A stretch of DNA of 64,000 nt from Opitutales bacterium (lineage in GTDB: Bacteria > Verrucomicrobiota > Verrucomicrobiia > Opitutales > PNEW01): NCBI GenBank assembly GCA_965197745.1, contig CBDANS010000007.1, forward strand, positions 1,024,001 to 1,088,000. Direction: 5' to 3'. Below the pieces are notes generated by a model, which was not told the origin of the DNA, made no database searches, and saw only the letters and a program-made list of their open reading frames with translations. Below are positions 5,736 to 43,412 of this stretch, one piece after another. The translations under genes and the position numbers were made by a program. Within the stretch, counting starts at the first letter, position 1. The number at the start of each line of letters is the position of its first letter.

Positions 5736-5857
5736 GGTGCTATTCCTCTTTTGTCAGGACGTATGATTGCAAGTTGTACTTAGTCTCGCAATGACAATGG
5801 CGTTATCTGATCGCTACTGCAGGGAAGGACAAATAATAATTTAATTATTTCTCCCAA

Positions 5858-22248: not shown

Positions 22249-22985
22249 AGGTGGAACGCGCTGTCCCTAGCGCGTTCGATTATGTTGTAATAAAAGAAGC
22301 GTGCTAGGGACAGCCCGCTCCACCATGGGATGCAAGATTTATGATGTAATATTGATTAATCTTCAGGACGAGGACGAAGATGACCCTAATCAACTATACC
22401 ATAAGGCTCCAGCATGTCGACCATAGCCTCGGCCACGACGAAGCGTGGCCCTCCAGAAATTGTATAAGAGAAAGGGCCAATATGGAACATGCGAGTCCAA
22501 ATGAAATGGAGGGCCACGCTCCGTCGTGGCCGTAACCATCATTTATAATGTGAATAATAAATGATACACATGTTAAAACGGACGCAACGGAGTGCGTCCC
22601 TCCAGAAAAAAAATGGAGGGCCACGCGTTGTCGTGGCCGCTGTGTAGAATGAGCTATAATTCTATATATAATTAAAGTACTAAAACCCTGCCCAGACGAA
22701 GCTTACTGTTTATCAAGATACAAGAATACATCGTTATCATCTTCGTCCCTCTTTTCATTGCGAGGAGTGAAGCGACGAAGCAATCCAGGCGGTTAAGGTT
22801 ACGCTACAGACATTCCCCTGGATCGCCGCAGTCAGCTGCGACTTCTTCGCGATGACAAAAATGGATTGAATCACAGCAAGGGGTGAAGCTCGACATGTCC
22901 AAAATTGCCTATCACCTCAACAGCGCGTTCCACCATGAGTTTTAAGTAATTGAAGAGGCAGACGAAGACGAAGATGATCCTAATT
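22249..22985. repeat. Intergenic palindrome field (GGTGGAACGCGCTG pair, REP copies, RPE-like pair)
   Basis: ggtggaacgcgctgtccctagcgcg...cgtgctagggacagcccgctccacc; REP copies at 22430-22640; RPE-like pair at 22756-22857. Confidence 0.8.
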
Positions 22986-25659: not shown

Positions 25660-27010
25660 TGGAGTGACCCCCAAAAATGGTATCATTAACAGAGAGAGGT
25701 TATCGGGATAAACAGATAACCTCAATGAAAAGAAAAAGATATACAACAGAACAGATCATAGCAATACTGCGGCAGCCCGATACGGGCAAAACCGTGCAGG
25801 AAGTCTGCCACGGCAACAACCTAAGTGAACAGACCTTCTATCGCTGGGGCAAAAAGTATGGCAACTTGGAGCTGGCTGATGCGAAGCGATTTAAAGAGCT
25901 GGAAAAGGAGAATACGGAGCTGAAGAAGATGCTCGCTGATCAAATGCTCAAGCTTCGGGTGTTGGAGGAAACGCTCTCAAAAAAATGGTGAGCCCAAAGC
26001 AGAAGAAGCGAGCAGTAAAAGATGCGGCTGAGAAGGGGCTGTGCTCGTTTTAGAGGGCTTGTGCTTATCTCAGCCTCAGTTGGTCAACGTACAGCTACCG
26101 ACCCAAGCAGGCCAGTAAGAAGGCTCAGCAATTGGCCGAGCGGATTTTGACCTTGTCCTGGGAACATCCCCGTTACGGTTACCGGCGCATTCGTGCCTTG
26201 CTGGTGAAAGAAGGTTGGGCGGCAAGCAGGAAATTTGTACAGGCAGTGCGACGTTCTTCGGGCTTACAGGTAAAGCCACCAAAAAAGCGTAGACACCGTC
26301 AGGGGATCTCTACTGGGCTCCCTACTAAAGCAACCGGTCGCAATCACGTCTGGTCCTGGGACTTTGTCCATGATCGTACAGACAATGGCGGTATGCTAAA
26401 GATGATGACCTTGATCGATGTACCGAGGAGCTGAAAGCGACGACACTCAAGCGAAGCGAAGACATATACGCGTAAATGTTTACGCATCCGGGTAGCTCGA
26501 CAGCTCACCTCAACCGATGTTCTCTCGGTACTCAGCGAAACCATCGATGAAGAGGGAGTTCCTAGCTATATCCGCAGTGACAACGGCAGTGTTCCGAGGA
26601 GCGAAGCGACGACATGCGAAGCCATTCATTGCTCATCAGGTGCAGCAGTGGTTGTCCGACAAAAAGATCAAGGCGATATATATCGATCCGGGCAGTCCCT
26701 GGCAAAACGGTTTCATCGAGTCGTTTCACAACCGCTTACGCGATGAGTGTTTGAACCGTGAAGTGTTGCTCAGCGTGGCTGAAGCACAAGTTGTAATAGA
26801 ACAATGGCGTCAGACCTATAACAATGAACATCCCCACAGTCGATTAGGCTTTAAAAGCCCACAAGAGTTTGTCACATTCCTTTCCGCTCTTGGCCGCGTT
26901 CGGGCTACGCCCTCACTGCGCCAAGATCTCTCATATACATCAATCCTAAAACCATTAATACCCGGTAACTCTCTCACATAATAATTGGTACGAAAAACGG
27001 GGTCCAATCA
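25660..27010 (+). mobile_element. IS3-family element, copy 1 (orfA 25725-25991; orfB disrupted)
   Basis: Ends TGGAGTGACCCC... and ...GGGGTCCAATCA; orfA MKRKRYTTEQII; A-run frameshift window CAAAAAAATGG; orfB RYGYRR, WSWDF, PGSPWQNGFIESF. Confidence 0.92.
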
Positions 27011-27049
27011 TAAGTGCTTAATAATTAATATAAAGTATTAATATATAAG

Positions 27050-27080
27050 TGGTTCCAGTGGGAGAGTTGAACTCCTATCC
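27050..27080 (-). other. Degenerate tmRNA/tRNA 3'-end-like sequence (possible att relic)
   Basis: Minus strand GGATAGGAGTTCAACTCTCCCACTGGAACCA: T-loop GTTCAA and CCA end, with no 5' half present. Confidence 0.45.
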
Positions 27081-27114
27081 AAAGGCACTATACTTGGATT
27101 TTGTCTAGAGTTAG

Positions 27115-27211
27115 CTACCAATTTTATACCAATATCTACCAATTTGGTAGAATTGGTTGACTTTTTTTGGATTAACTACCAATTTGGTAGATATTGGTAT
27201 AAAATTGGCAG
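27115..27211. repeat. Long inverted repeat built of TACCAA units upstream of the Fic gene
   Basis: ctaccaattttataccaatatctaccaa vs reverse complement of ttggtagatattggtataaaattggcag (1 mismatch). Confidence 0.85.
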
Positions 27212-27239
27212 TTATAACACCATACACTTGAAGGACATA

Positions 27240-28583
27240 ATGAGAATCCCACAATCACCAAAGCCTTTTTTGGACATTATTAGTAAAATTAGTAAATCTG
27301 GTCTTGATAAATTTAGGAAAATTCTCTCAGAAGAATCAGAACCTTTAACTGCTGAAGAATACATTCACTGGGATGATCTTCGCAGACGTATCCCCCCCAA
27401 AAACTTGCCTCACGAAGAATGGTGGGCGGCCATAAAATTCAAAAGAATGTCTACTTTAAAAGAAATTCCTTTAAAAGACAAAAAAGGTAACGATTTTCTT
27501 TTTACTACACCTGAAATGGTTAATGAGCAGTTGCATAACATCGATATGTATTCTGGTGGAATGGTTGCAATGGGAGAGCCTATAACGAACCCACAAACTC
27601 GTGATAAATATCTCGTCAACTCACTTATTCAGGAGGCAATTACATCCAGTCAACTTGAAGGCGCGGCAACTACGCGAGAAGTGGCTAAAGAAATGATTCG
27701 GAGCGGTAGATCACCAAGGGATAAAAGTGAACAAATGATATTTAATAATTATTTTACAATGCAACGAATCATTGAACTAAAAAATCAACCATTAAGTTTG
27801 GAACTTATATTTAATCTACATAAATTAGTAACAGATAAAACACTAGATGATCCTACAGCAGCAGGACGATTTCGTAATACTGATGAAAACATATATCTTG
27901 AAGATTCATATGGTGAAACTGTCCATATTCCTCCCGCGGCAGACGAGCTTATTGATAGAATCAATTTGATGTGTAAATTTGCGAATGAAAAGGGGGGGAA
28001 GTATTTCATACATCCTGTAGTTCGTGCGATTATATTACACTTTTGGCTAGCATATGATCATCCGTTTATTGATGGAAATGGGAGAACAGCGAGAGCATTA
28101 TTTTACTGGGCTATGCTTAATAAGGAATATTGGCTATTTGAATACATTTCGATTTCGCAAATTCTGATAAAAGCTCCAATTAAATATGCGCGGTCATTTC
28201 TCCTTACCGAAACTGATGAAAACGATACAACATATTTTATAATATACCAAATAGAGGTAATAAAAAGAGCCATTAAACTTTTAAAATCTTATATTAAAAA
28301 TAAAACTAAGGAAATTAGCGAAACTGAAATATTGTTAAAAGATATAGAATCACTTAATCACCGGCAATATTCAATTATAAGCCATGCTTTACGTCATCCA
28401 CGTCACAGATATACTATATCTAGTCATCGAAAAAGTCATAATGTTGCTTATGATACAGCAAGGCATGATCTTTTGAAGTTATCTAATTTAGGGTTTCTTA
28501 ATCAGAAAAAAATGGGTAAGAAAATATTATTTGATGTTAAAGATAATTTATTAGACGTCATCAGAGATACGTCATCAGAGTGA
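27240..28583 (+). CDS. Fic family protein
   Basis: HPFIDGNGRTAR Fic motif, SSQLEG inhibitory-type motif, C-terminal wHTH-like region; RBS AAGGA before ATG 27240. Confidence 0.93.
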   Translation: MRIPQSPKPFLDIISKISKSGLDKFRKILSEESEPLTAEEYIHWDDLRRRIPPKNLPHEEWWAAIKFKRMSTLKEIPLKDKKGNDFLFTTPEMVNEQLHNIDMYSGGMVAMGEPITNPQTRDKYLVNSLIQEAITSSQLEGAATTREVAKEMIRSGRSPRDKSEQMIFNNYFTMQRIIELKNQPLSLELIFNLHKLVTDKTLDDPTAAGRFRNTDENIYLEDSYGETVHIPPAADELIDRINLMCKFANEKGGKYFIHPVVRAIILHFWLAYDHPFIDGNGRTARALFYWAMLNKEYWLFEYISISQILIKAPIKYARSFLLTETDENDTTYFIIYQIEVIKRAIKLLKSYIKNKTKEISETEILLKDIESLNHRQYSIISHALRHPRHRYTISSHRKSHNVAYDTARHDLLKLSNLGFLNQKKMGKKILFDVKDNLLDVIRDTSSE

Positions 28584-29927
28584 TCGGACCCCGTTATTCG
28601 TACCAGTTTAAGTGAGAAAGTTACCGGGTGTTAATGATTTTAGGATTGATGTGTTGGAGAGGTCTTGGCGAAGTGAGGGCGTAGCCCGAACGCGGCCAAG
28701 ATCTGAAAGGAATCAGACAAACTCTAGTGAGCTTCTAAAGCCTAAAGGACTGTGGAGATGTTCATAGTTATAAGTCTGACGCCATTGTTCGATTACTACT
28801 TGCGCTTCAGTCACGCTAAGCAACACTTCACGATTTAAATATCCATCGCGTATGCAGTTATGAAGCGACTCGATGAAACTGTTTGTTATTCTCGATCTAG
28901 TTCGTTGAAGTGTCGCTTAGCTCTGTAGCCAGGGACTGCCCGGATCGAAATATATCACCTTGATGTTTTGTCGGTCAACCACTGTTGCACTTGATGAGCG
29001 ATGAATGGCTTCGCATGTCGTCGCTTCGCTCCTCGGAACACTGCCGTTGTCACTATGGATATAGCTGAGAGTTCACTCTCTTTCAATGGCCTCGCTATTG
29101 AACAGAGAGAACATCGTTTGAGGTGGGCTGTCTAGCTACCCGGAGACGCAAACATCTACGTGTGTATTCATCGATTAGAGTCATCATCTTTAATGGACTG
29201 CCATTATCAGTTCGATCATGGACAAAGTCCCAGGACCAGACGTGATTGCGATCATTTGCTTTAGTGAGACACTCTGTTGAGACTCCTTGACGATGTCTAC
29301 GTTTTTCGGTGGCTTAACCTGCAGACCCTCTGAACGTCGCACCGTATGAACAAACTTCCTGCTTGTTGTCCAGCCTTCCTTTACGAGCAAGGCACGGATA
29401 CGCCGGTAACCGTAGCGGGGATGTTCCCAGGACAAGGGTACAATCCACTCGGCCAACCGCTGAGCTTCCTGCTGCCCTGCTTGGGCTGGTATCTGTAAGT
29501 TAAACAAGCTGAAGCTGAGATAAGCACAAGCCCTCTAAAACGAGCACAGTCCTTTCTCAGCCGCATCTTTTACTACTCGCTCCTTCTGCTTTGGGCTCAC
29601 CCCTTTTTTGACCGCGTTTCTTCCATTACCTGACTCTTGAGCATTTGATCAGCAAGCAACTTCTTCAGCGCGGTGTTTTCTTTTCCCAACTCCTTAAATC
29701 GCTTCGCATCGGCCAGTTCTAAATTGCCATACTTTTTACCCCAGCGATAGAAAGTCAGTTCACTTACGTTGTTGCTACGGCAGATTTCCTGAACCTTTTT
29801 ACCGGTAACGGCTTGCCGCAGTATTGCGATGATCTGTTCTGTTGTGTATCTTTTTCTTTTCATTAAGCTTATCCGTTTATCCCCATAACCTCTCTCTGTT
29901 AATGATTCGATTTTTTGGGTCACTCCA
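28581..29927 (-). mobile_element. IS3-family element, copy 2 (decayed, related to copy 1, inverted)
   Basis: Ends TGATCGGACCCCG and GGGTCACTCCA; orfA MKRKRYTTEQII; orfB with multiple lesions. Confidence 0.9.
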
Positions 29928-30390
29928 CCTACATGCACACCTTTTCCAACTGAGCAGTCGAGAATTGGAGGCTGAGAGGAGAGATTGCCAAGGCCGTCCG
30001 GCAATTGTGCTACCGGATGCGGGGCTATGATCGGAAAGCAGAGAAGTATGGGGTTATATTCGTATTCAGGACACCACTTGGGAGGGAATCTCCTTTACTT
30101 TCGCTACCGAAGGGCTGACAAACCTGGATGATTATGTGCTGAAAGCCTGCCTGGAAATCGCTGAGCCGCTGCTTGCGCGGTTTTTGCAGAAGGGACATAG
30201 AATTCGTGGTATCGGGCTACATACGATTGAAATGGATGCGACCAACCAGCTTGAACTCTTTTTTCGCGAAGACGAAAAGTTAGCGCGGATGTACTTCGCG
30301 GTGGACAAATCAACAACCGCTTTGGCCTCGACACCATCATGCAGGCTTCCATGAAGTACGCCGTTAAGGGAAAAACTCATTTTCTGGAAC
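29928..30390 (+). pseudogene. C-terminal remnant of a Y-family DNA polymerase (DinB-like), cut by IS3 copy 2
   Basis: YMHTF...VRQLCYRMR...RIRGIGL...QLELF...AVD/INNRFG across frameshifts. Confidence 0.65.
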
Positions 30391-30696
30391 GGAATGTTTA
30401 AAGCAATGATCGTTCTTTTTTACTTCGATTGATTATTGAACTGATCGAAAATGTGGCATGATGGTTTTATTTCGCCAGATCGATGCTCTTGTCAGTATTA
30501 CCCTATTTCTTCAGCTTGTCGTTATCTCTCCCACTGGTTTGTAAGAAACGGGTTCTCACGTTAAAAAGCAGCAACATAAAAAAGAGAGGGAGTTTAAGTA
30601 TTTTTTGGTATTTAATAGGCATGAATAATTTCAACTATAGCGCTCGTCTGTAATTTGATAATGGTTAGGTTGGAACTCTAACCTAACCGACAAGTA

Positions 30697-33081
30697 ATGC
30701 TTCGAAAGCTCATATTTTTTGCGGTGACTGCTATAATGTTAAGCAGTTTCCAATTTCTTTACGCACATAATGTGTCTTTTCCTTTACCCAGTGATAAGAT
30801 CAATGAATACCCTTTTAACATGGTGGGAAAAGTTTCCTCGAGAGATTTCGTTGGTTCTGGCACAGCAATATCACAAAAGGTTGTTCTCTCCGCAGCACAT
30901 GTTTTTTTTGATATTGAGAATCTAGATTGGCATCCAAGCCCTTTTAGGTGGAACTTACGCCATTCTCCATCCGATCGAATTTTTGATATAAGTGCGCGAT
31001 CTTACAATCATTTTAGCGACTTTGCTTTAGCCACACGCCGTTTTCAACCTGATGATCCGGCTTTCAACTCATATGAACAATTTAATCGCGATGTCATTAC
31101 TCTTATATTTTATGAAGATGTAGCTAATGGAGGCCATGCAGGACGGGGTAGCAACCGAATCACCGATAACTCTGATAAAATGATCGTCGGATATCCTAAC
31201 CTGAACTACCCCGATTATGATCAGAGAAGAGACACAATGCATTCGACTAGTCTTGATGGGAGTCCTGCCAAATATGAACTGATAGACTACTATGACCGAC
31301 AGGGTTCTATAAGTCGACTTTATGAAACTTACGATTTGTCTACAGGTCCAGGTAATAGTGGGGGTCCGGTATACGGGTTAATTAGATTTGCGAATGGTAC
31401 TGTTGATTGGGGTGTAGTGGGTATAACTGTTGGTGGCCGTACAGGCGAGTCTTCCGTGGCGGTAGGTATTGACCAAGCTATTTCTGATTTAATCAAAGAG
31501 GCGGAATCCACTTTTGATACTATCTCATCCGACGACCATGGATATACTCGCAGCACAGCGACCACGGTAGAACTTAATCGCTCTATTGCGGGCAACTTAG
31601 ATACAGTTGGTGATATTGATTATTTTCGTTTTGTAATAAAGAGCGATGGAACGATAAATGCATATACAACAGGTGATACCGATACCCTTGGAACATTACA
31701 GAATAATTCAGGAAACGTTATTACGACAAAAGACGGTAGTGGTTCAGGGGAGAATTTTTTAATTACACGGGTACTCAATCCGGGAACATATTACATCGCC
31801 GTCAGCAATTTCTCTTTTGAAAAAACAGGTAGATATTCTTTTCGCGTTGATTTTACTGAGACCATTAAATTACCAGACTTAGCGGTTGATTTTATTAGCG
31901 TAGACAGAAGGTCAGTAGTAGCAGGTGAATCGGTTCGTGTTGGTTTCAATAGAAGTAACACGGGGGATAAAAATTCTGGTATATTCGCTCATGGGATCTA
32001 TTTATCGGGGGATAAAATTATTACAACCAGAGATACACGATTGTTAAATTTGAAAAATATAAGTATGAATGTGGGTGCTTCAGGAAGAATCTCTTTTAAA
32101 GTAATTATACCAACGAATACAATTCCGGGTATTTATTACCTAAGTTATATTCTCGACTCTGATATGAAGATTAAAGAAACCGATGAGACTAACAACACAG
32201 GTTATGCTGAAATTACGGTATCGGAACCTATTTCAGACGATGATGGAGACTTAGTGCTTGGTGGCTTTGGTGATATAGCTGGAAAGGATATTCAGCACCC
32301 TAATGGAAACGTCTTTGACCAAATTTTGCTCACTGGACCATTCATAAAGCTCAAGGCGAAGCCAGGTCAGATCACGAGGGCATCGTTTATGGATGAAAAC
32401 GAAGACATTGTCCAGGTAGAGTTCTCAGGCAGCGGTACCTTTACCGTGACATTAGACCCGACCACTTTTTTACCTCCCGCTTTACCCCCACGCTATAACC
32501 AGCAGGTGGAGTACGTCACCGGCAAGCCCAGCGTGGTGATCGAAGGAGCAGACTCCTCGACCTTCTTCAGTATCTTCACGGTGGGATCGATCAACGCGGT
32601 GAACCAGACGTTGTTCCCCGAGGGACAGGTCTATGATGCGCAAGCGGATGTGACTCTGGTGGAGGTAATTAACTCCACGGGTACCGGAGGGATGCAGTTG
32701 TCGAACACGGTGTTCAGTGGAAGCACGGGCAACGTCGGGGTGATTGCAAGAGTGGTGCCGATTGCAGTACGCTTAACAGTTGGTGATATCGATGCTGATG
32801 GCGATGCAGTGCCGCACCTCTTGTTCGGAGAAGGTTCGTTCACGGTGCCATCTGGCAATCCCGGGTTGCGCATCACCGGTGGAGACTTGAAGCAAACAAA
32901 CAGTGCTTCAATCGTGATCGCGGAGAGCAGATCGACAACTCCCGGGTTTGAGATCCTGATCTCTCAGAATAACTTCAAGTCCGATGGAATCCCTCAGCCC
33001 GCTCAAAGTATAGATGCTACCTTTGTAAACGAGGACGGAACTGTGATCCCCGTAACTGTGGATAATTTAACAATCGAATAA
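30697..33081 (+). CDS. Secreted trypsin-like serine protease with PPC- and CARDB-like domains and a C-terminal module
   Basis: Signal peptide, LSAAHV, GNSGGP, DDHG...DIDYF...PGTYYI (PPC), PDL...ETDETNN (CARDB). Confidence 0.82.
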   Translation: MLRKLIFFAVTAIMLSSFQFLYAHNVSFPLPSDKINEYPFNMVGKVSSRDFVGSGTAISQKVVLSAAHVFFDIENLDWHPSPFRWNLRHSPSDRIFDISARSYNHFSDFALATRRFQPDDPAFNSYEQFNRDVITLIFYEDVANGGHAGRGSNRITDNSDKMIVGYPNLNYPDYDQRRDTMHSTSLDGSPAKYELIDYYDRQGSISRLYETYDLSTGPGNSGGPVYGLIRFANGTVDWGVVGITVGGRTGESSVAVGIDQAISDLIKEAESTFDTISSDDHGYTRSTATTVELNRSIAGNLDTVGDIDYFRFVIKSDGTINAYTTGDTDTLGTLQNNSGNVITTKDGSGSGENFLITRVLNPGTYYIAVSNFSFEKTGRYSFRVDFTETIKLPDLAVDFISVDRRSVVAGESVRVGFNRSNTGDKNSGIFAHGIYLSGDKIITTRDTRLLNLKNISMNVGASGRISFKVIIPTNTIPGIYYLSYILDSDMKIKETDETNNTGYAEITVSEPISDDDGDLVLGGFGDIAGKDIQHPNGNVFDQILLTGPFIKLKAKPGQITRASFMDENEDIVQVEFSGSGTFTVTLDPTTFLPPALPPRYNQQVEYVTGKPSVVIEGADSSTFFSIFTVGSINAVNQTLFPEGQVYDAQADVTLVEVINSTGTGGMQLSNTVFSGSTGNVGVIARVVPIAVRLTVGDIDADGDAVPHLLFGEGSFTVPSGNPGLRITGGDLKQTNSASIVIAESRSTTPGFEILISQNNFKSDGIPQPAQSIDATFVNEDGTVIPVTVDNLTIE

Positions 33082-33332
33082 GATCGGTATTAATTAACGT
33101 AATTCATGGCTTTGTAAGGTCTTACCAGGTATTCGAAAATTCCTTCTGATTTCTTTGCTTTACTATTTTTAATCATCCCATTCCTTGATAGATTATATTC
33201 GAGTATGGAAAGTCTTAGAATGGCTTGGGATCGCCTTGAATTAAAAACCGGTAGGACCCCTTTATCGCCCTAGCCTGTACTTTGCGTTACCCCGGCCGTT
33301 GCAGGTGTCTAGCTATTGATATTTATTCCCTC

Positions 33333-33572
33333 CTATAAATAGCTACTCTCACTTGCCATACGGGAGAGCCCAACATCGTCGCATAGTTCAAGCTGCGATT
33401 TGTCCCGGAAGGTAAAAGTATCTTCTTGATAGGTGATATTTTCGCGACAACTCTGCGCCTCCCTCCGGTTGTGTTTGTCGATGACGTCTTGTCTGGTGCC
33501 ACGGTGTTGCCAGAGCAAGGACAAGCCAATCAAAGTAAAGACCAGAAGAAAGCAAATAAGAACGATAACCAT
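33333..33572 (-). CDS. Small hypothetical protein with N-terminal hydrophobic helix
   Basis: 79-aa ORF MVIVLICFLLVFTLIGLSLLW. Confidence 0.35.
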   Translation of the reverse strand: MVIVLICFLLVFTLIGLSLLWQHRGTRQDVIDKHNRREAQSCRENITYQEDTFTFRDKSQLELCDDVGLSRMASESSYL

Positions 33573-34103
33573 GAGAGTAACTTTATACGTGGTTCTCTGG
33601 TTGTGACTAGTTCAAAAATCTCATATCTTAACATTAGAAGCAAGACGCACGTCGTTTGGATAGGTCCTGGACAAATGCATTTTACAGTTTCTTATGACAG
33701 ATTTCTATTTCGAGACAGGGACAGGGAAATCTCGAGCTTCCTGAATCTAAGAGCGGGACAGAGGGGGGCGGTTTTTTTTGCGTTAGGTTGACGCCGTCAT
33801 GATGCCTTCAATATATAAATTTATAACTTTTCTTTTGTTTGTTGTTTTGCGCGCGCAAGTTGTAAAAACAGGACTTCAATCTTATCTGTAGACACACTTA
33901 AAAAAGAGAGGGAGGATCGACACGATTCTCTCTTATCAAGCTGTCCATTAATTAATGGATATTTTAGGTTGTCCGCAATGAAGACCAACCTGTGGACACA
34001 CTAAAAAAGTGATCTATCGTTTCTGGGTTGCTTGAGCAGACCGTTATTGGCGGTAGTGTGCGCGGACCAAAAGGGGATACCCTAAAAGGAGATCTTAGAA
34101 GGA

Positions 34104-34131
34104 GACCCGCACAATCGTTATTATGTCCAGT
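34104..34131 (+). other. dif-like XerC/XerD recombination site
   Basis: GACCCGCACAA-TCGTTA-TTATGTCCAGT has the 11-6-11 layout; matches E. coli dif arms 7/11 and 8/11. Confidence 0.6.
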
Positions 34132-34399
34132 TGATTTGTAAATAATTGATATTCAACATATTAAATTTATACATAAAATTCCTAACGGTCTTAGAACGAC
34201 GCTAATTAAGGGGTAAGCCCCAGTTTAAAACCCTAATTAAGCCGGGGTTGACATACTATTGTTACACGCACTGCGCCCCATAATTCAGAGTATCCCTATC
34301 AAGAAAACGTTCGCCGTCTGACATCGCCGGTGTCCGCTAATTTGGGAATAAACCAATCTGGGAGCAAATCAGGTTACAGAGGGGCGGGGGGGTGCGATC

Positions 34400-35235
34400 G
34401 GAAGACCGACCCTTAGTCCATATATCGATTTACTCACCGGAAAATATTTTTACAAAGGGCAAAGTTTGGGAGCAAAATAATTTAAAAAGACCCTGCTTAA
34501 ATTGGCTTTTAAATGTACGATTCCCCTCCGTTATGAAACCCCCTTTCTCGAGGCTCTCAGACCCCTTCACGGGCAAATCAAATCAAGCTTCCAGGCTTCA
34601 AAAAATCCCCTCGGACACAAACCCATTCAAGCGAGCGTACGAAAGCACGCATTATCTTTTAGAATATTTCCCCGCAGTAAAATCTGTTCCTTAAAGATAT
34701 TGTCTGTGTCTGCTTGGGACAGCTCATTTCAAATATTAAAATGTCCATTGATAAAAAACATGTAGGTAACCAAATTAAATCTTGGTTGCTTTCGAGGTTT
34801 TATTATTACGGTTTTAATCAGCAGATCGACCGGGGGTCCCCCAATTAATTTACTCACCGTAAAATATATTTACAAAGAGGGATGTAAGGGACCCAAAAAA
34901 TAAAGCCACAAGCATTAAATTGGCTCTAAAAGGTACGATCACCCTTCGTCATGATATACATTATGCCTTAAGATACAACCGCCCTTTCTCGAGGTATTCA
35001 GCCCTCTTGAAGAGCAAATCAAATTAAGCTTAGAAGCTTTAAATATTCCCCCAGCCTTGAAAACATTCAATCGAGCGTACGAAAGCACACATTTTTATAA
35101 CTTAAACTATATTCCCCAGACAATGTCACCGTACTAAAATAGTATAGAAGAGAATTTGCCTACATTGCTCGTTTATTTATAAATGCATTAACAAAAAAAC
35201 ATAACGGGTAACCAAATTAAACTTTGGTTACCCCA
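34400..35235. repeat. Two diverged ~420-bp non-coding tandem units
   Basis: Shared blocks ATTTACTCACCG, TTAAATTGGCT, CCCTTTCTCGAGG, GCAAATCAAAT, CGAGCGTACGAAAGCAC, GGTAACCAAATTAAA. Confidence 0.85.
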
Positions 35236-35390
35236 ATGTTCTTTAATATCTATGTTCTTATCAACCTTGTTCTTCGTACAAGTCTGCACCCTGTGCTGGT
35301 TTTATCACAATAAAGATGTCCAGGGTGCATGTATAAGATCGATAAGGTGTCCAGTATGCATATTTATTAAACCTGTGCATAAAACTATTT

Positions 35391-35625
35391 CTGATCGATC
35401 AGGATTTGCATTTTGGCATCATTTTCGTGATTTTTCGTAATCCTGATCGATCAGAACTTGTGTTTTTGTGTCATTTTCGCGATTTTTCGTAATCCTGATC
35501 GATCAGAACTTGTGTTTTAGCATTATTTTTGTGATTTAGCCTTTTTCGTTTTAGCAAGACTTACGTTTCAGGGCCATTTTGTGATTTTTCATGATTCGCT
35601 TTTGCGAGATTTGCATTTTTCCCCA
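35391..35625. repeat. 52-bp-period tandem repeat with CTGATCGATCAG palindrome (3 good units, 2 degenerate)
   Basis: CTGATCGATCAG at 35391, 35443 and 35495. Confidence 0.9.
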
Positions 35626-35972
35626 CGCCCGCACCTCGTAAAGAGGTTAATGATGCGGCGATAGCTACAGAGCCGACGCTACTCCAGGCAAACTTACTAG
35701 CATGTTTTTATTGATGACCTAAGTAATGGTTTTACTTAAGTAGAAGATGAACCCCGACCTGAATGACCCGGGGAATCCAAAAGAGTGGAAATAGTATTTT
35801 TTTTGCATGGATCATCTTTTTAAAACGACCGGTAAATATATTTACAACTCAGACCCTTATCCCTCAGACAATATTTTCGTACTTAAATACCATACAAAAG
35901 AATTTGTCCGCAATGCCCGTTAATAAAAAAGCTGATGCTTGAGGGAAGGGGGTGTTACCAAGCACCCCCTTT

Positions 35973-36557
35973 TTATCTTGTTTTTGGAAAGTATTCCTTT
36001 CCAGCCAACCATAAATAAGTATCAATCTCTCTAAGCGAAAAACCGGTTAGCTTATAAAACATCTGAAATTTCTTAATAACATCTGAAAATATCTTGTAAG
36101 TCTTTAATTCATATCTTTTAAACTCAGCAAATTGATACATATTTCTAAAGTGCCATAGCATTTCACTTACGTGATGATCATAAATCGAATAAACATTTGG
36201 TTTATGATAACTGTAGTATTTTGTCGCGAAAGAATAATTATTCCGGGATTTACCACCTATCTCGACTGAAGCAATTTCGTTTATTAAATCTCCTTTCCCG
36301 CTGTTCAAGTCTTCATCTATATCTGAAACATAGATATGGTTCGATACTGAATAAATATCAAATATATTGGTTCCGGAGAGTCGGTTTAATGCTGTAGTCT
36401 TCAATAGAACAAATCTTAAATCGTTGTTTTCTGGACATAGTTTAGTAAATAAGACTTTCAATGCATCTTCTTGATCATTGTATTGTTTCATATATCTCCA
36501 TTTCTTGAGATAAGATTTAACAATTCTTTTACTTGGTTTCTCAACTGATCTTTTCAT
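35973..36557 (-). CDS. Hypothetical protein, possibly HhH/DNA-glycosylase-like
   Basis: SFATKYYSYHKPNVYSIYD and LREIDTYLW motifs; RBS CAGGAG before ATG 36557. Confidence 0.6.
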   Translation of the reverse strand: MKRSVEKPSKRIVKSYLKKWRYMKQYNDQEDALKVLFTKLCPENNDLRFVLLKTTALNRLSGTNIFDIYSVSNHIYVSDIDEDLNSGKGDLINEIASVEIGGKSRNNYSFATKYYSYHKPNVYSIYDHHVSEMLWHFRNMYQFAEFKRYELKTYKIFSDVIKKFQMFYKLTGFSLREIDTYLWLAGKEYFPKTR

Positions 36558-36595
36558 TGTTCTCCTGGTCGTGACCATCCAAACCTAAATGACTA

Positions 36596-38031
36596 TGGTC
36601 GGGTGATCGGGTTACGTAAACTGGTCCACCGAGAGAGTTAGTCTGGAGAGGTTAATGTTGAAGTTAAGTTGGTAGAGGAAGTCAAGGCTTGGGCGCAATG
36701 AGGGCGTAGCCCGAATGGAGCACGAGCCTTGTTTATAGGCGTCCAAAGCGAAGCGTCTCGGTGTAATGTTGCCGAGACTGCGGTGTGGGCGAACGTTGTT
36801 ATAAAGCCAGCGCCAGTCTTCGATAACGACACGCGCTTCGGTCAATGTCCATAATTGCTCGCGATTTAAGCACTCCTCGCGAAACCGGGCGTGGAAGGAT
36901 TCAATGTATCCGTTGTTATTCTCGCTATCGCTCGTTGAGGTGTCGCTTCGCTCGGTAGCCAGGGACTTCCCGGTTCGATGTAGATGGTTCTGATATTCAT
37001 GGCAGCAAGCCAGGTCCGCAACTGCGTTTCTATTAAATGGCTTCGCATGTCGTCGCTTCGCTCCTCGGAACCGAACCGTTGTCGCTGCGGATATATGGTG
37101 GAGGTCCCTATTGCTTGATCAGCTTCTGCATGACAGCCCGTGCGCTCTGTGCATTGATAAGACGATCGACAGGGATGAACAGGCACTCGCGCGTATAGGT
37201 CTTCGCTTCACTTGAGTGTCGTCGCTTTCAGCTCCTCGGTACATCGAGTATCGTCAGCATCTTGAGACGGCCACCGCGGATCGTCTTATCGTGGATAAAA
37301 TCCCAGCTGAAAACGTGGTCAGGATATTCGGCGGCAGTCAGCAAGCCGGTGGAGACACCCCGTCGCCGGCGTTTCGGCCTTGCGCGGGGCAATGGCCAAA
37401 CCTAACTCGCGACGCAAGCGTTGCACCAAGCGTTTACCTACCTCCCATCTTTCGTCCTTCAACAACTTCGTGATCCTGGTATAGCCCCCAGCTGGCATAT
37501 TGCCGGGATAACCGCCGTATCGCCGCTTTCAGCTTCATTAACCACACGCATCAGATTGCCTCGTCTCATAGACATACGTGGGACGGTGGAGGAGAAAATA
37601 TCGGCACGCTCCACGCATCGAACATCGGCCCCGAGCTGCATATCTTTCCGCCACCTGAGGTTTGTGCCCAGGGCTTACTACCGAGCGTATGCGACATCTC
37701 CCATTTTTTTTCGAGGGTCTCCTGCAGGATCTCTATCCCTAGCAGCTTGTCCGCCAGCATCCGCTTTAACCGCGTGTTTTCCTTCTCCAGTTCCTTCATC
37801 CGCTTGGCCTGATTCACATCAATCATCACAAACTCCCGTTTCCAACGGTGGAAGGTCTGTTCGCTGAGGTTATTCTCACGGCACACTTCCTGGGTCGACT
37901 TGCCTCTGTCTGCTTGCCGCAATATCCGTATCTTCTCTTCGGTTGTATATCTTTTGCCTTTCATTGTCTGAGTCCTTTCCAGGTTACCCAGAATAACTTT
38001 TCAAGGGGCTCAGTTTCCGTGGTCTCGACCA
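36596..38031 (-). mobile_element. IS3-family element, copy 3 (second lineage, decayed)
   Basis: TGGTCG ends with 4-bp target duplication ACTA (36592-36595, 38032-38035); orfA MKGKRYTTEEKIR; orfB fragments EPGSPW, YNNVRPHRSLG. Confidence 0.9.
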
Positions 38032-38162
38032 ACTACTACCTTCTTGAAATAGAAGCAAAGCCTCGTGGATATGAGAATACTGTAGTCCATGCTTATTCGA
38101 TTCCAAAACAACAGCTTTATGAAGTTTATCAATCGCTAACAAAGCATTTTCAGCCAAAATAG
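38032..38162 (+). pseudogene. Remnant of a homolog of the 60750-61106 protein, split by IS3 copy 3
   Basis: Rejoined HPNLNDYYLLEIEA...LYEVYQSLTKHFQP resembles HPDLDGSYALVIEA...LYQVLQSITKHLKP. Confidence 0.6.
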
Positions 38163-38336
38163 TTATATCACATTCTTCTTTAGTTAATGAGGGTTTATCA
38201 CAAGTTTATATTAGTGTTTCCATAGTTGTATCTTTATATAAGTCAGTGTTTATTATTATTTTTTAGTTAAGATCTAATTCTAGGAAATTCCGTTAATAAA
38301 TTCATAAACACATCATTAAGTGTCTCATGTGTCTTT

Positions 38337-38918
38337 TTAATTATGACTTATGTTTTCGATGTCATCTTCCACTTTCTCATCGAACTTAATTAAAGACTTT
38401 TTCCAGTCAAATAACGCTTCCCATTGGCCAGTCGAGGGATTTTCTCTTTTCCAGTTATTTTTCTCTTGTAGTTCCCAAAATGAGTCAGCAGCTCTTTCGT
38501 CAATACCCATAGCATCGCAAATATCGATGAACTCATCGTAATTTTTCGGAAGAGGACGGGGTGAAGGAAGGGCTCTTTGCCTCTCCTGCGCTGCGGGGGT
38601 CAATAAGGTGTAAGTATTATATACTCTCCTGCCTCGACCTGATTCTATTTTCAGCAACGTTATAGCGCTTAATATTTTAAGCACAGCGGAGGTTTTACTT
38701 TTCGATAAACCCGCGCGGTAAGCGATCAATCCGATCGAAGCAGAGAAGGGACGAAATTGATCTCCATGATCATTAGCAATCCAGTTCAGGGCACTGTAAA
38801 CAGAAATTGTAAATGAAGCGTTGGTCCCCAGTACTTCCTGTAAAATAATTATATGCGCATCCTTATAATTTCGGTAATAGGAGAGCTCTTTACTTTGACC
38901 TGCTGGATTTTCAGGCAT
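38337..38918 (-). CDS. Putative replication initiator / replisome-organizer-like HTH protein
   Basis: N-terminal HTH (SIGLIAYRAGLSKSKTSAVLKIL, NTYTL) and C-terminal FW...NNWK...DWK motif. Confidence 0.6.
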   Translation of the reverse strand: MPENPAGQSKELSYYRNYKDAHIIILQEVLGTNASFTISVYSALNWIANDHGDQFRPFSASIGLIAYRAGLSKSKTSAVLKILSAITLLKIESGRGRRVYNTYTLLTPAAQERQRALPSPRPLPKNYDEFIDICDAMGIDERAADSFWELQEKNNWKRENPSTGQWEALFDWKKSLIKFDEKVEDDIENISHN

Positions 38919-39180
38919 GTCTCTTCCTGTGCTTGCGGGCTGCTGTCTGCTGATTCTCCAACTTTTCCAAAGTCGTTAAGAGCGTCTCCCGGCGGTATAA
39001 CTTTCTGCCTCCTATGCGAATCGGTTTAAGCAGTCCGCGCCTGTCGTAATTTCGTACTGTGCGAATGGAGACCCCGAGTATTACTGCGGTCTCTGACTCC
39101 CTCAGCAACAGGGGCGGGTCGATACGAACTGAATTGAGTGTAGATGGGGTATCCATGGTGCCTTGTAATTTAAGGCACAC
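38911..39180 (-). CDS. MerR-type HTH excisionase-like protein
   Basis: LLRESETAVILGVSIRTVRNYDRRGLLKPIRIGGRKLYRR. Confidence 0.8.
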   Translation of the reverse strand: MCLKLQGTMDTPSTLNSVRIDPPLLLRESETAVILGVSIRTVRNYDRRGLLKPIRIGGRKLYRRETLLTTLEKLENQQTAARKHRKRHA

Positions 39181-39246
39181 ACTATACCATCACATTTCTC
39201 GATTTTTCCTGTAATCGCATACAGTAACTTTAGAAGATACTGTATG

Positions 39247-40246
39247 TTAATGGAGAACAGGTGAATTCCCTCTTTCAAGAGCGATTTTAATTATTTCTGT
39301 GACTGAAAAAACGTTTGGATAAACACGTTGTATCAACCCATTTTGATCGGGACAATCTTCGTTGCTATTATCTATCGCATCGGCTTGTCCCTCAATACGG
39401 GAATAGTATCGCCTTTTTCGAAGAACCGGGTTAAGGTTTTTACCAAATCCCCGCTCAACAATCGCTTTCTCAATTGCATCAGCCCGTGGTAGAGATTCAG
39501 ATGTGCGAAAGTGCTCAACAGCCAGAAAGGATTTCCACTGCGCCTCTGTCCCAAACAACTGGACTTTTGTGGCGGGGAATCCTCTTCCAGTTTTTCGGTA
39601 ATAAGCTTGATGATTTTATCACGGGAACTTTTGTCTCTCATAGAGACACGAGGGACGGCAAATAAACGATAAGTATTAACTGTCCAGTGCCAATACAGTG
39701 CCGTATCCGAAAAACAGCTCTCAAGAGCTGCTTGCGAATGGTCTTCGTGGGGCAGCGCAGGGGCTATTTCTATATCAGGAGGTATTGCATCTTCGTTGGG
39801 ATATAATCCTGAAGGGACGATCTCGCAAATATCCGCCGTATAGTCCGCCCAATAATCTCTGTACGCCTTCTGAAATCCTCGCGGGGTATTGAGCCAGGTT
39901 GAATCAAGCTTTAAAGGGGCACGCCCTTTTTTCTTATCCTCTTTGTATTCTTCTAAAAACTCAACCTGGTCCTCTTCTATCCTCGGACCTACTACCTGAC
40001 GATGTCCTTCTTTGGGCCCAAGCCCACGTGGGATTATTACTGGTTCATGCATCCAGTTCCAGGCCGCTCCCGCAAAATAATTACGGTCATCTTGAACGAA
40101 CCTGAATTTTTCCCATCTTCCCTCTTTGCCCTGAAGACTATGCTAAGCTCCTTTGTTTTTTCTTGAAACGCTTTATTGCGTCGAAGTAATTCCCATATCT
40201 TCGCCGGTATGCCGTCCTCACAGGGATTGTAGATTGATAAGCTCAT
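39247..40246 (-). pseudogene. Hypothetical regulator with WELLRRN (DUF6499-like) N-terminus, two frameshifts
   Basis: Three overlapping ORFs; the 5' two are colinear with the single ORF 62071-62841. Confidence 0.7.
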
Positions 40247-41040
40247 GCACGCTAACGGTCTAATGGTTTAAATGTGACCACCCTTGGAATTCCATCCTTC
40301 ACTCCTTGAAATGGACACAGCCCAGCGCTTCAATTGCTGGAGATGATCCCTGTTTATTTGCAATAACGTTAGCCCTCACAACTTCGCGAACGCAAGGTGC
40401 AATTTGAGATTTACCCGGTATCGTTCTCCCCGCCATGTTTGAAATTCGACTGGAAGCACGCTGGCTAATGTATCTCCCGCGACTCTCCCACTTCCTGCAC
40501 CGACAGATCCTCTGGGGTGTTTCTATCCCTGTCCCTTAGCTGTCATGAGCGCTGTCCCGTGCGTGAGTTTCCCTGCCCCCGAACTGCGATGAAAAATTTC
40601 CTTGCCCACGAGGTTCCGTCCTTCCGCTCTAACTTATGCACTGGCGCAACCTTATGGCTGATTTCCCGCTCGCCCGTATCCAACACTACGACGCACGTAA
40701 CAGGCTGCTTGCCATCGCGGGAATGTTTTGCTCTCTCCTTCACGATGAAAAATTATGACACAAAATCGGCGCGGTGCAAACGCAATATTTTTCAAACTGA
40801 CCCACTAACGGTAACCGTTAATCTGGCCAACCCCCTCGCTGGTGAGGCTGAAGATGTCACCCAAAGTAATCATGGAAAACTTTAAAACCCCTCTCAAATC
40901 TATAAGCGAAAATAGGATCGATAAGTTGGACTGCTGTTCGGCAATCAGGGCACAGATAGCGGTTGAAGGTTTGGAATCGAGTTGTTTTACAGCTAAATTC
41001 GCTGCTTAAGGGTATCATGAACCCGGATGGCAATACCCCA

Positions 41041-42327
41041 TCAATCTAATGGTTTAAATGCGACAACCGATTGCTCTGCATTTGCCGGGAGAATTGAGAA
41101 ATATTTTTCCCCCTCTGTTCTGCTAGCAAGACTCCGGTAATGATCAAACAGTACCTGGTCACTCGAACGATGGCCCAGCATCGCTGCTGTCTTGCTTGAA
41201 TCACTGGTCAGGGCATAATAGTAGCTGCCGAAGCTGTGGCGCATCGCATTGCTGTAGTTTCCCCCCCAATGGGGAAAGCCCGCTTGTTTGGTTAACTTAG
41301 CAAAGTTTATGTATGAATTTGCGGGTGCAACTTTACCCTTTTTATTATGACATAGCTGCAACCATGCCACACAATTGTCCATAAGATCCATGACTCTTAA
41401 CTGGCGCTTTTTAGCTATCTGTGGGCCAACCGTCAGTAACTTGCGCTCCAGATCAATAACCGACCAGTCAAGCCGGTAAATCTCAGTGCTCCTTAACCCT
41501 GCGAACAGCCCTAGTGCCACCAATGGGAGCAGCCCCATATCTTCATCTGTCTTTGCCGCATGCAAAACCAAATCTTCTGCTTGAGTGACTTTGAGAATGA
41601 CAGGGGGCTTCCAGTCTATTTTTGGGATTGGAATTTTCTTCACGGGGTTATCGACCCGAAATCCCTTGTTCACCGCATAGTTAAAAAAGCTGCTTAAGCA
41701 TAAGCGGTAGTTTATAATGCTTCTCACAGAGAGATCGGTAAAGTTATTGAGCCACTCCTCTATTTCCGTTTGAGAAATCTCCTTGACCACTCGGCTCCCA
41801 AAGTTTCTAGAGAAGATTCCCAGCCGGGAGCGGATATCATTTATGGAGCGCGAGCGCAGATTCCGGTTTTCTTTTTCCTCAATCAATGTTGCCGTTAATT
41901 CCAGAACCGTAATATCACCGGCAGGGGGATTCAAATGCAGCTTGGCAAACTCCGCTGCCTGCAAGAGGGTAATGTCGAAACCTTCCAGTATTTCGAATGC
42001 GTTGAAAGCGTCCTTGGACTGGTACCCGGTCAGGTTATAATGATGCTGCCCGTGTTGAAGCAATTGTTCGTGTTGTTCTTTTGCCCAGGCAAAAGCGACC
42101 TCTTTATCCTTGAACTGTCTTCTCATTCGCTTGCCCGCGAACTTCGCGGGAATCAAAACCTGGTAGGAAAATCCGTAATCATCGCCAGCGGTTCGATTGA
42201 TAACTTCCCTGATTGTGATAGCACTTTTTTTAGGGTGCTCCCAGCTATTAAGGGGACTCGATTTTTTACGTTTTCCTTTAGTTGCCTCCATCAAGCAAAC
42301 TAATGCCTCAATCAGGTTTACTTGCAA
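41041..42327 (-). CDS. Tyrosine recombinase/integrase
   Basis: SAM-like core-binding region; GLRSTE, AKKRQLR, NAMRHSFGSY, LGH, FDHY. Confidence 0.93.
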   Translation of the reverse strand: MQVNLIEALVCLMEATKGKRKKSSPLNSWEHPKKSAITIREVINRTAGDDYGFSYQVLIPAKFAGKRMRRQFKDKEVAFAWAKEQHEQLLQHGQHHYNLTGYQSKDAFNAFEILEGFDITLLQAAEFAKLHLNPPAGDITVLELTATLIEEKENRNLRSRSINDIRSRLGIFSRNFGSRVVKEISQTEIEEWLNNFTDLSVRSIINYRLCLSSFFNYAVNKGFRVDNPVKKIPIPKIDWKPPVILKVTQAEDLVLHAAKTDEDMGLLPLVALGLFAGLRSTEIYRLDWSVIDLERKLLTVGPQIAKKRQLRVMDLMDNCVAWLQLCHNKKGKVAPANSYINFAKLTKQAGFPHWGGNYSNAMRHSFGSYYYALTSDSSKTAAMLGHRSSDQVLFDHYRSLASRTEGEKYFSILPANAEQSVVAFKPLD

Positions 42328-42394
42328 GCTTTATTGACAATAATAATACAGGAACATTACAAGTCATTGATATATTTATATATAAACGATTCGA

Positions 42395-43412
42395 TGATCC
42401 GTTCTGCCAAGGGCTTGCTGGTTCGATATAGAGGGTATTGATTTTCATCGCAGTTAGCCAGGCTCTCAATTCACTTCCAATAAATGGCTTCGCATGTCGT
42501 CGCTTCGCTCCTCGGAACCGATCCATTGTCGCTGCGAATATATTGTGGCGGCCCATGACGGTCGAGCAGTTTTTGCATGACCCCGCGCACCTTCTGCGCA
42601 TTGATATGGCGATCGACATGGATCACCCGACACTCGCGGGTGTACTCGTCGAGGACGGTCAGCATTTTGAGATTCCCACCGCGAGCCGTCTTATCGTGGA
42701 TAAAATCCCAGGTCCAAACAGGGTCGGGATGTTCGGCCTTGGTCGGCAGCCCGGTGGAGATACCCCGGCGCCGACCTCTTGGCTTGCGTGGGGGGATCGC
42801 CAGACCCAGTTCACGTCGCAGACCTTGCACGAGACGTTTACCCACCTGCCAGCCTTCGTCCTTCAACAGCTTCGTGATCTTCGGATAGCCCCACCTCGCC
42901 TATTGCCGTGATAACCGCCTTACTGCCGCCTTCAGTTTCGTTAGCCAGGCATCCGGATACTTCGCCCGATACGCATAGGTGGAGCGGTGCAGGTGAAAGT
43001 ATCGGCACGCTCCACGCATCGAACACTGGCCCCGGGCCACAAGTCTCTCTGCCACTTGCCGCTTGTGCCCAGGGCTTACCGTTTTTTTTCGAGGGTCTCC
43101 TGCACAATCTCTATCCCCAGCAGCTTGTCCGCCAGCATCCGCTTTAACCGCGCGTTCTCCTTCAAAGAGTTCCTTCATCCGCTTGGCCTGGTTGACATCG
43201 ATCATTCCAAACTCACCCTTCCAGTGGAGGAAGCTCAGTTCGCTTAGGTTGTTCTCACGGCATCCTCTTCCTGGGTCGATTTGCCTCTGTCTGCTTGCCG
43301 CAATATACGTATCTTCTCTTCGGTTGTGTATCTTTTATCTTTCATTGTCTAAGTCCTTTTTAGGTGGCCCAGACCAACTTTTCAAGTGTCACAGTTTCCG
43401 TGGTCACGACCA
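42395..43412 (-). mobile_element. IS3-family element, copy 4 (related to copy 3, 3'-truncated)
   Basis: End ...CCGTGGTCACGACCA; orfB WTWDF, LDEYTRECR, YIRSDNGS, EPASPWQNG, then truncation. Confidence 0.88.

Follow-up and report, generated by a model that had tools for sequence, protein, structure and literature searches.

It has long been asked how very small bacterial repeats, repetitive extragenic palindromic (REP)-like ones among them, multiply, and most such families offer neither clean filled and empty sites nor an insertion rule. We analyzed 64,000 nucleotides (nt) of DNA from an Opitutales bacterium (assembly GCA_965197745.1, contig CBDANS010000007.1; hereafter the window), in which blocks of 25–44 nt interrupt the transposase gene orfB of insertion sequences (IS) of the IS3 family. 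No published description of these blocks was found in the literature searched; the closest kinds are REPs with CGTC or TGTC tags together with Ssn motifs, the small dispersed repeats that are said to occur in cyanobacteria, and, as a concept, the homing of introns and inteins. The pattern reported here points to an undescribed site-specific spread of oligonucleotide-sized DNA in a bacterial genome. Because the system gives dozens of natural filled/empty pairs, an exact junction rule, strict pairing of subtype and site, and one physically linked candidate enzyme of 97 residues, its mechanism is directly testable.

In the homing of group I introns and inteins, and in collaborative or intronless homing by free-standing GIY-YIG and HNH enzymes, conserved motifs are hit, the filled copy serves as template for the empty allele, the recognition site is disrupted, and flanking bases can be co-converted. 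The blocks differ from such elements in that they are 25–44 nt long, hold neither an open reading frame (ORF) nor a ribozyme, are retained in the product, and occupy several different target sites. Intron and intein homing involves cutting by an endonuclease; at the empty sites described here, such a cut is a proposal. In 2008, Elhai et al. reportedly described SDR4–6 of Nostoc and Anabaena, repeats of 21–27 nt that look mobile, lie inside other repeats (IS and miniature inverted-repeat transposable elements) whose copies are otherwise identical, leave no duplication, and have no known enzyme. These repeats come from another phylum and have other sequences.

Ssn/SRM repeats and REPs with CGTC or TGTC tags resemble the blocks in their anatomy, that of a short hairpin repeat whose single-stranded arms are conserved while the stems vary in a compensating way (PMC3733652, PMC11893778). 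They are also alike in being mostly extragenic (PMC3733652, PMC11893778) and, for Ssn/SRM, in an architecture where inverted tagged repeats flank a gene for a single-domain GIY-YIG protein of ∼97 residues (PMC11893778). In Opitutus terrae, which belongs to the Opitutales, REPs have been reported within ORFs (PMC3733652), and an ssnA homologue is listed for this species (Supplementary Data 4). The blocks depart from REP and SRM repeats in being shorter, in lying off the published SRM pattern, in keeping to one fixed codon per subtype across diverged IS3 lineages, and in replacing two target bases. In the REP and Ssn literature covered, no demonstration was found of REP or SRM units homing to homologous sites, or of Ssn moving DNA. 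REP/REPIN-RAYT and IS200/IS605-derived elements are similar in that tiny, hairpin-bearing, non-autonomous units are assumed to move as single-stranded DNA (ssDNA) with an enzyme acting in trans, and to leave no duplication (PMC3116915). In contrast to these, the blocks end without a GTAG tag, the sole Y1 gene of the genome is unflanked by them, their 5′ bases are variable, and they displace two bases of the target. Selfish palindromic repeats that are tolerated inside protein-coding genes are also known as the Rickettsia palindromic elements and as REPs in coding genes (PMC3733652), but those are elements of 100–150 bp or REP dimers that stay in frame and are translated, whereas the blocks break the gene and are confined to genes for IS3 transposases.

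The source genome (G000; 4.45 Mb in seven contigs, 92% complete) holds the window as positions 1024001–1088000 of its contig C7. Filled and empty paralogues were compared in alignments of 37 copies of IS3 lineage L1 and 37 of lineage L2, and by an automatic search for places where the left flank is common and the insert absent. At filled sites, the two bases AR of S|AR|T(A) are replaced by a block TWCCGAG...CA; empty sites read, for example, G-AG-T, G-AA-T, C-AA-A, or C-AG-T, and filled ones S-[TWCCGAG...CA]-T. This rule was seen in filled/empty pairs at seven target contexts, and at the site of the block type named F, either AG or CG is replaced. Target duplications are absent and two target bases are lost, so that the original prediction was correct in seeing no duplication but had taken the middle A of the codon to be, usually, the base replaced; it is the last two codon bases (AA or AG) that give way, to a block that itself ends in A. 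When a contig from sequencing run X1 was aligned independently, it skipped 33 letters, with AG between the flanks, and a contig from an RNA library has the 37-nt D block where two bases stand otherwise. (All four sequencing runs were examined as Logan contigs, in which rare excised or spliced forms are invisible.) A sister genome follows the same rule, with a 29-nt block in orfA that stands for AA.

The lengths of the blocks are 33 nt for A, 44 for B, 44 for C (43 in window copy 3), 37 for D, and 25 for F and the generic type described below. Each module opens with a constant 5′ TWCCGAG, followed by a short hairpin of variable sequence and by CGAC(G)ACA, and closes with a tail that is specific to the subtype and ends in CA; on the opposite strand, a module reads TGTCG-hairpin-CTCGGWA. 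The 5′ flanks vary (AGTG, TCCG, TCGG, GATG, TGGC, GACG, and TTAC), and the stems of A, B, and D have 2–3 bp only. The reading of the inserts as carriers of mini-hairpins is weakly supported, because ssDNA folds of A, B, and C with their flanks, computed on both strands with DNA parameters that may miss the special stability of GCGAAGC, were no better than those of shuffles in six of six cases (z +0.19 to +1.13); the GCGAAGC hairpin is described as unusually stable (PMC13037366). The orfA insertion lies at a native AA-TACCGAGCTG site, where a block of 28–29 nt ending in CA replaces AA. It was seen in the ∼35-copy family of 1345-nt elements of the sister-genus genome G002 (read in one copy, L037) and in one copy of the G000 L1 alignment (block at 366–394).

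Four IS3-family copies lie in the window. The family assignment comes from the 403-residue ORF of an empty L2 copy, which scores 240.3 bits with NF033516 (cut-off 160) and matches the Pfam domains HTH_Tnp_1, rve, and rve_3; element ends read TGGAGTG...ATCA. Copy 1 (25660..27010, plus strand; 1351 nt, lineage L1a) has an in-frame TAG in orfB and carries block B at 26421..26464 (44 nt including the final A, in place of AA of the Glu codon in D-[E]-Y-T-R) and block A at 26592..26624 (33 nt including the final A, in place of AR of the Glu codon in D-N-G-S-[E]-F). Copy 2 (28581..29927, minus strand) is a decayed L1 singleton (cluster 11, pattern ‘-AC-’) with A at 29006..29038 and a degenerate C at 28884..28927 in P-W-[Q]-N-G, both on the minus strand. 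Copy 3 (36596..38031, ends approximate; minus strand; cluster 12, ‘BAC-’) contains, on its own strand, B (37199..37241, with one substitution and then C instead of A), A (37038..37070), and C (36915..36957, 43 nt for AG of the Gln codon; the empty comparison in copy 4 reads TGG CAG AAC GGA). It also contains a reverse-oriented F on the plus strand (37679..37703; 25 nt, of the generic type TACCGAG-hairpin-CGACATCTCCCA), antisense to copy 3 and directly behind an A8 slippery run. Copy 4 (42385..43412, 3′ limit approximate; minus strand) is truncated at its 3′ end and has only A (42485..42517, minus strand), with flank type GGATCGG and empty B and C sites. Block A was read in place in copies 2, 3, and 4, and an A8 or A7–8 run is present in all four copies.

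Insert A of the original prediction was recovered as exact matches at the four positions claimed (26592–26623 on the plus strand; 29007–29038, 37039–37070, and 42486–42517 on the minus strand), with none in 100 dinucleotide-preserving shuffles. Reading the sequences in place also bore out the claims of B in copies 1 and 3, of C in copies 2 (degenerate) and 3, and of intact empty B and C sites elsewhere. Two further claims had to be widened: clustering gives three IS lineages in the window rather than two (copies 1 and 2 in L1, copy 4 in L2, and copy 3 as the singleton L3), and beyond the three insert types, D is present in the genome and F in copy 3.

Genome-wide, each subtype keeps to its own place. 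All 73 copies of A in the source genome are at DNGS[E]F of IS3 orfB, all 33 copies of B at D[E]YTR, and 12 of the 13 copies of C at PW[Q]NG, the remaining one being a deletion derivative. The new type D (36–37 nt) has 14 copies, 17 at a looser threshold, and all 14 are at RD[E]CLN; F (25 nt, in the opposite orientation, behind the A8 frameshift run) is found in window copy 3 and in 3 of the 37 aligned L2 copies. CpG variants of A, designated A′, are tolerated in at least 14 copies. Among 123 A/B/D-like cores, 116 belong to the IS3 loci that blastn defines; the others comprise 3 at the D site of additional IS3 remnants, 3 within remnants of tRNA genes, and a single stray match. None of subtypes A–D was found at the site of another subtype or at any other S|AR|T site in the genome, and the random placement that the original prediction had named as refuting it was not observed, each subtype keeping one codon. 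S|AR|T alone is insufficient for filling: the nine loci of IS3 lineage L4 carry G|AG|T at the corresponding codon, yet none of them is filled. The four orfB sites fall, as 24-nt windows, in the top 7.4%, 13.6%, 13.6%, and 1.5% of nucleotide identity between L1 and L2, and these conservation ranks, when combined by hand by Fisher's method, give p ∼0.006. The fidelity of subtype to site matches the prediction of templated copying between homologous sites and not that of free transposition. As examples of L4, the copies at C7:976714-977526 and C6:671600-672412 have open frames, no blocks, and the motifs VDQYTR, VDNGPEF, and LRDELL.

Across lineages, the blocks are far more alike than the DNA around them. 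Block A is identical at 32/32 positions, compared with 57/120 in its flanks (Fisher p = 2e-9); the corresponding values are 32/36 and 53/120 for D (p = 9e-7), 37/43 and 59/120 for B, and 33/43 and 53/120 for C. Synonymous divergence (dS) between L1 and L2 is saturated and not computable. The sublineages that share blocks have dS of 0.19–0.38 with ratios of nonsynonymous to synonymous divergence (dN/dS) of 0.11–0.31, indicating purifying selection; L1a and L1b, which both carry B and A, have dS 0.37 and dN/dS 0.15, and show no difference in either block. In the sister genus, B is identical in 19/19 loci and A in 9/10, in IS copies that are 78–89% identical to copy 1. Bases adjoining A stay lineage-specific (GGCAGTG, GGTTCCG, GGATCGG, and GGTTCGG). 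The four L2 copies that are empty group within the clade of filled L2b copies; their consensus departs from that of filled L2b at the block, at the adjacent AGTTT/ATTC, and at three columns near the 3′ end, and nowhere else. The results on block and flank identity, on dS, and on neighboring bases together exclude neutral vertical descent, and conversion tracts would have to stop exactly at the block borders. These comparisons indicate that the blocks entered diverged IS3 lineages recently and with exact junctions, which fits homing-like spread rather than plain inheritance. The preference of the original prediction for repeated site-specific insertion or homing-like conversion over inheritance is upheld by identical blocks in flanks of ∼50% identity, exact junctions, and the presence of filled and empty copies in one subfamily.

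The same family of modules occurs outside IS3 elements. A generic module, TACCGAG-hairpin-CGACATCTTCCA(T), was counted with a strict pattern in the source genome (50 copies), in the sister-genus genomes G001 (76) and G002 (93), which are two independent assemblies, and in the order-level relatives G015 (6), G040 (7), and G028 (1), with none in the other 35 relatives. Its stems vary with compensating changes (GGGC/GCCC, GGAC/GTCC, GAGC/GCTC, and GTCCCGC/GCGGGAC). The generic module resides mainly at GC|AA|TCCAGG, one fixed position in the TGTCATTGCGAGG-tagged ends of a palindromic element; 151 such TGTCAT-tagged ends were counted, of which 41 are filled, ∼83 are empty, and 27 are unclassified, some of the latter being degenerate filled ends. 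Inverted TGTCATTGCGAGG tags stand 94–144 nt to either side of 4 of the 8 GIY-YIG matches in the genome, and the best-preserved of these elements has a module in its left end but none in its right. The gene product (C7:1541992-1542282) has 97 residues and a single domain (Pfam GIY-YIG only), and its closest solved relative is the UPF0213 protein 1zg2 (E = 1.5e-5). Close homologues (at least 65% identity) are present in G000, G001, G002, and G015, all of which bear modules. The A/B/D-like blocks resemble the first hairpin unit of the tagged ends (TTGCGAGGAGCAACGCGACGAAGC compared with TTCCGAGGAGCGAAGCGACGACAT). In addition, an A-like subtype, E, replaces the T-loop AA in GGTTCG|AA|TCC of partial tRNA copies downstream of tRNA-Asn and tRNA-Gln genes. 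Two partial copies of tRNA 3′ ends with an E block lie at G000:C6:355395-355700 and G000:C5:236400-236620 (L202 and L203) and give a weak RtT-like Rfam match of 23.7 bits.

The data establish the anatomy of the modules, the replacement of AR, the fidelity of subtype to site, the recent entry into diverged lineages, the family tie with the GIY-YIG elements, and the distribution. We consider it probable that the blocks spread in a homing-like manner, modules the size of oligonucleotides being copied strand-specifically into homologous S|AR|T sites within multi-copy DNA that is dispensable. The modules form a lineage-restricted family of ultra-short (25–44 nt), non-autonomous DNA units. Such a module would enter one DNA strand, swapping out AR of S|AR|T(A) without a target duplication, and each subtype would be copied only from its site to the homologous site of another copy rather than being scattered at random; modules would therefore accumulate in dispensable multi-copy DNA with locally conserved sequence. 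The places occupied are the four IS3 orfB codons (A–D), the stretch behind the frameshift run (F), a fixed position in GIY-YIG element ends, and, in partial tRNA copies, the T-loop. Copying may be seeded at the empty site by a nick, a break, or ssDNA at a replication fork, with a filled paralogue as the template. The prime candidate for supplying the cut would be the 97-residue Ssn-like protein acting as an ssDNA nuclease, a role that we put forward only tentatively. Broken IS3 copies may subsequently multiply as non-autonomous elements with transposase made elsewhere. If the spread is nuclease-seeded templated copying, homing extends to inserts of 25–44 nt, and Ssn nucleases gain a role in genome dynamics.

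A bolder form of the homing-like explanation, which is possible but doubtful, is micro-homing, in which the 25–44-nt cassettes would act as a gene drive. In this form, a hairpin-guided ssDNA nuclease of the Ssn type would nick the empty site, the filled paralogue would be copied base-exactly with AR replaced, and each subtype would carry its own address, the knock-out of the IS3 transposase at catalytic motifs being a by-product. If true, no smaller homing element would be known, and template-directed insertion of short patches would have a precedent in nature.

Several observations weigh against homing-like copying or against the part given to the nuclease. Templated copying between flanks of ∼50–60% identity would usually drag donor flank bases along, but flank drag was seen in one case only, a TTT to TTC change beside A in L2b, which ordinary recombination between L2 subfamilies also explains. 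The generic module has no replication-strand bias (25 compared with 24), which gives no support to a lagging-strand ssDNA route, and no clean case of de novo insertion in unique DNA was found in 20 kb of G001 compared with syntenic G002, where the spacers are too rearranged. The link of the blocks to Ssn, as to any enzyme, consists of neighborhood and of co-occurrence among kin only; published Ssn enzymes are nucleases that are not shown to move DNA (PMC11893778). G040 has seven modules and no close homologue of the 97-residue query. Of the 151 tags, none starts inside a match to the SRM pattern HGTCWY..RNCYNB. That pattern also had no match in three tested strings (block A with flanks, a consensus-like generic module, and a consensus-like tag end), and on contig C7 it gave 12 matches compared with 6–12 in five shuffles. 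Finally, occupancy follows IS subfamily at shallow depth, so that few insertion events are strictly required.

This last point leads to the alternative that survives best, although we judge it unlikely: that the blocks are old single insertions propagated by vertical inheritance and by ordinary recombination or gene conversion among IS copies, with no dedicated mechanism. Clustering of occupancy in 76 full-length copies and the two halves of one tandem pair showed that, in cluster 1 (29 copies), 25 copies are BA and 4 are BACD. In L2, A is present in 33 of 37 copies, the other four (1286 nt) being block-free; in the L1 alignment of 37 copies, 34 have A, 30 have B, 11 have C, and 9 have D. The uniform occupancy within recent bursts means that most of the copy number is amplification of already filled IS copies, and the claim that occupancy cuts across IS lineages is correct for diverged lineages and fails at the level of shallow subfamilies. 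IS copies do recombine at the blocks, as shown by a chimeric element (G000:C7:1673280-1674708) in which an L1 left half and an L2 right half are joined exactly at A (C7:1673744), within the shared 32 nt. The TTC that flanks A in L2b, where TTT stands in the empty copies, could be co-conversion from L2a and fits this alternative as well. What counts against it is the identity of blocks where flanks are near saturation (A 32/32 compared with 57/120), the dS of 0.19–0.38 between sublineages in which the blocks are unchanged, and the lineage-specific bases beside the block, which would require tracts to stop at exact borders repeatedly and in several lineages.

The effect of the blocks on their hosts bears on a second alternative, that they are a host device that silences IS3 transposases by placing stops or frameshifts in catalytic motifs (a domesticated anti-transposon defense; the original prediction had named silencing of transposons as one possibility). 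Net lengths are +31 (A), +42 (B), +42/41 (C), and +35 (D); A and D shift the orfB frame, and B and C carry in-frame stop codons. When the blocks were removed computationally, the consensus orfB of L1b, L2a, and L2b was fully open. All four orfB sites are in conserved motifs, every block breaks the frame or brings a stop, none of the 37 L1 copies is block-free, and outside IS3 the modules avoid open frames (22 of 106 are inside frames of at least 150 residues, which cover 83% of the genome), all as a silencing device would have it. We nevertheless regard such a device as very improbable, because the same family fills non-IS targets (the GIY-YIG element ends and the tRNA remnants), the nine intact L4 loci with the same codon context are untouched, and broken copies have multiplied to 13–17 per subfamily, so that the device would be ineffective at best. 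Among 29 L1 copies, direct repeats at the called ends measure 4 bp in 6 and 2 bp in 1, and the other 22 lack them. In run X1, the empty L1 A-site has a depth of 280 compared with 203 for the filled L1a junction, and the same empty-site sequence occurs only twice in the source genome; related populations therefore hold intact relatives that can supply transposase. For annotation, the blocks make otherwise intact IS3 genes look like pseudogenes, and counts of active transposases in Opitutales are misled.

If discrete single-stranded mini-elements that themselves read the target were freely transposed by an enzyme of the HUH (Y1/RAYT) or IS110 type, this would account for exact junctions, for the lack of duplications, and for an orientation that is strand-defined relative to AR, and the genome contains one Y1_Tnp gene (C6:163380-163706) and six IS110-family matches. 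We give this explanation little credence. No subtype occurs at the site of another or at S|AR|T sites elsewhere, the bases 5′ of the blocks vary, unlike those of IS200/IS605 targets, and, to our knowledge, HUH and IS110 insertions do not delete two target bases. Inspection of block tails and flanks by eye revealed no consistent guide-like complementarity, internal or otherwise. Neither modules nor tags lie within 700 nt of the Y1 gene, and a search up to 500 nt from it detected none of the motifs TWCCGAG, CTCGGWA, and TGTCAT. In the source genome, at its 92% completeness, no match was found to PF07282 (TnpB) or to PF00078 (reverse transcriptase). HUH/RAYT enzymes, TnpB, and reverse transcriptase were dropped as drivers on these grounds, and the expectation of an HUH enzyme or reverse transcriptase flanked by the same hairpins was disappointed. 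Four of the IS110-family (DEDD) genes are identical (G000:C5:450796-451230, C7:658515-658949, C7:1406596-1407030, and C7:2015553-2015987); of the two weaker matches, that at C6:564538-564885 adjoins an IS3 L1 copy.

The idea that the blocks are intron-like or are bypassed by ribosomes, so that filled IS3 copies still make transposase, agrees with the otherwise intact consensus orfB of L1b, L2a, and L2b, which diverge under purifying selection, with the lack of any block-free L1 copy in the source genome despite 29 near-identical copies, and with the replaced AR being synonymous either way (GAR for Glu, CAR for Gln, by sequence logic). It is scarcely credible, and the excisable DNA or RNA switch of the original prediction is likewise unsupported: the frame would stay broken after loss of a block unless AR were restored, B and C have in-frame stops, the RNA-library contigs retain B and D and, within the limits of contigs, which cannot show rare forms, have no block-skipping joint (a weak point), block folds are no better than those of shuffles, block-free L1 copies exist in the related populations of X1, and identity across saturated lineages together with tolerated CpG variants argues for recency and not for constraint. 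An Rfam scan of positions 24000–45000 with E up to 5 gave no relevant match, only chance-level ones to an AT-rich hairpin at ∼27.1 kb. Read-through, frameshifting, and bypass were also worked through by hand and set aside; A is stop-free in +1, stops occur in B (frame 0) and in C, and the lost codon is not regained with any take-off/landing pair. The motif TCCGAG has what we take to be a resemblance to the 8-17 DNAzyme core and to the hammerhead layout, and both were rejected because the required stems and conserved bases are absent.

The blocks are not an assembly artifact, a possibility that the original prediction had left standing, because the same blocks recur at the same sites in the two independent sister-genus assemblies (12 and 14 copies of A) and in Logan contigs of runs from several studies. 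In a scan of public genome contigs, the sole match to insert A was one Opitutales metagenome-assembled genome (OY829953.1), and a metagenome scan gave no match. A loose pattern for the generic module gave at least 120 metagenome rows, whose matches are chance, only 6 of 119 among the matches listed having the TW prefix and none a stem of at least 3 bp.

Other features of the IS3 copies were also recorded. At 26052–26054 in copy 1, and at the homologous place in copy 2, an in-frame TAG stands for an Arg codon of orfB (CSF*RAC). This TAG is found in all 16 L1a copies and in several singletons, where L1b has CSLRRAC; its presence in all 16 L1a copies means that a dead subfamily still multiplied. 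All L2 copies (for example, that at G000:C7:1901333-1902544; ∼43160–43230 in window copy 4) have one extra base in the coiled-coil region of orfA, which produces the 403-residue ORF that runs from the orfA start through A8 into orfB without frameshifting and puts the leucine-zipper stretch out of frame. To the right of copy 1, positions 27059–27215 form a long AT-rich hairpin with sub-threshold Rfam matches to miRNA and stem-loop families, the best at 39.6 bits compared with a gathering score of 90. Elsewhere in the window, an inverted pair of TGTCATTGCGAG tags at 175–186 (plus strand) and 481–492 (minus strand) represents ends of GIY-YIG/Ssn-type hairpin elements, the family in which the generic module resides at other places in the genome, and further TGTCATTGCGAG tags of the same family lie at 5785–5796 and 22846–22857, both on the minus strand.

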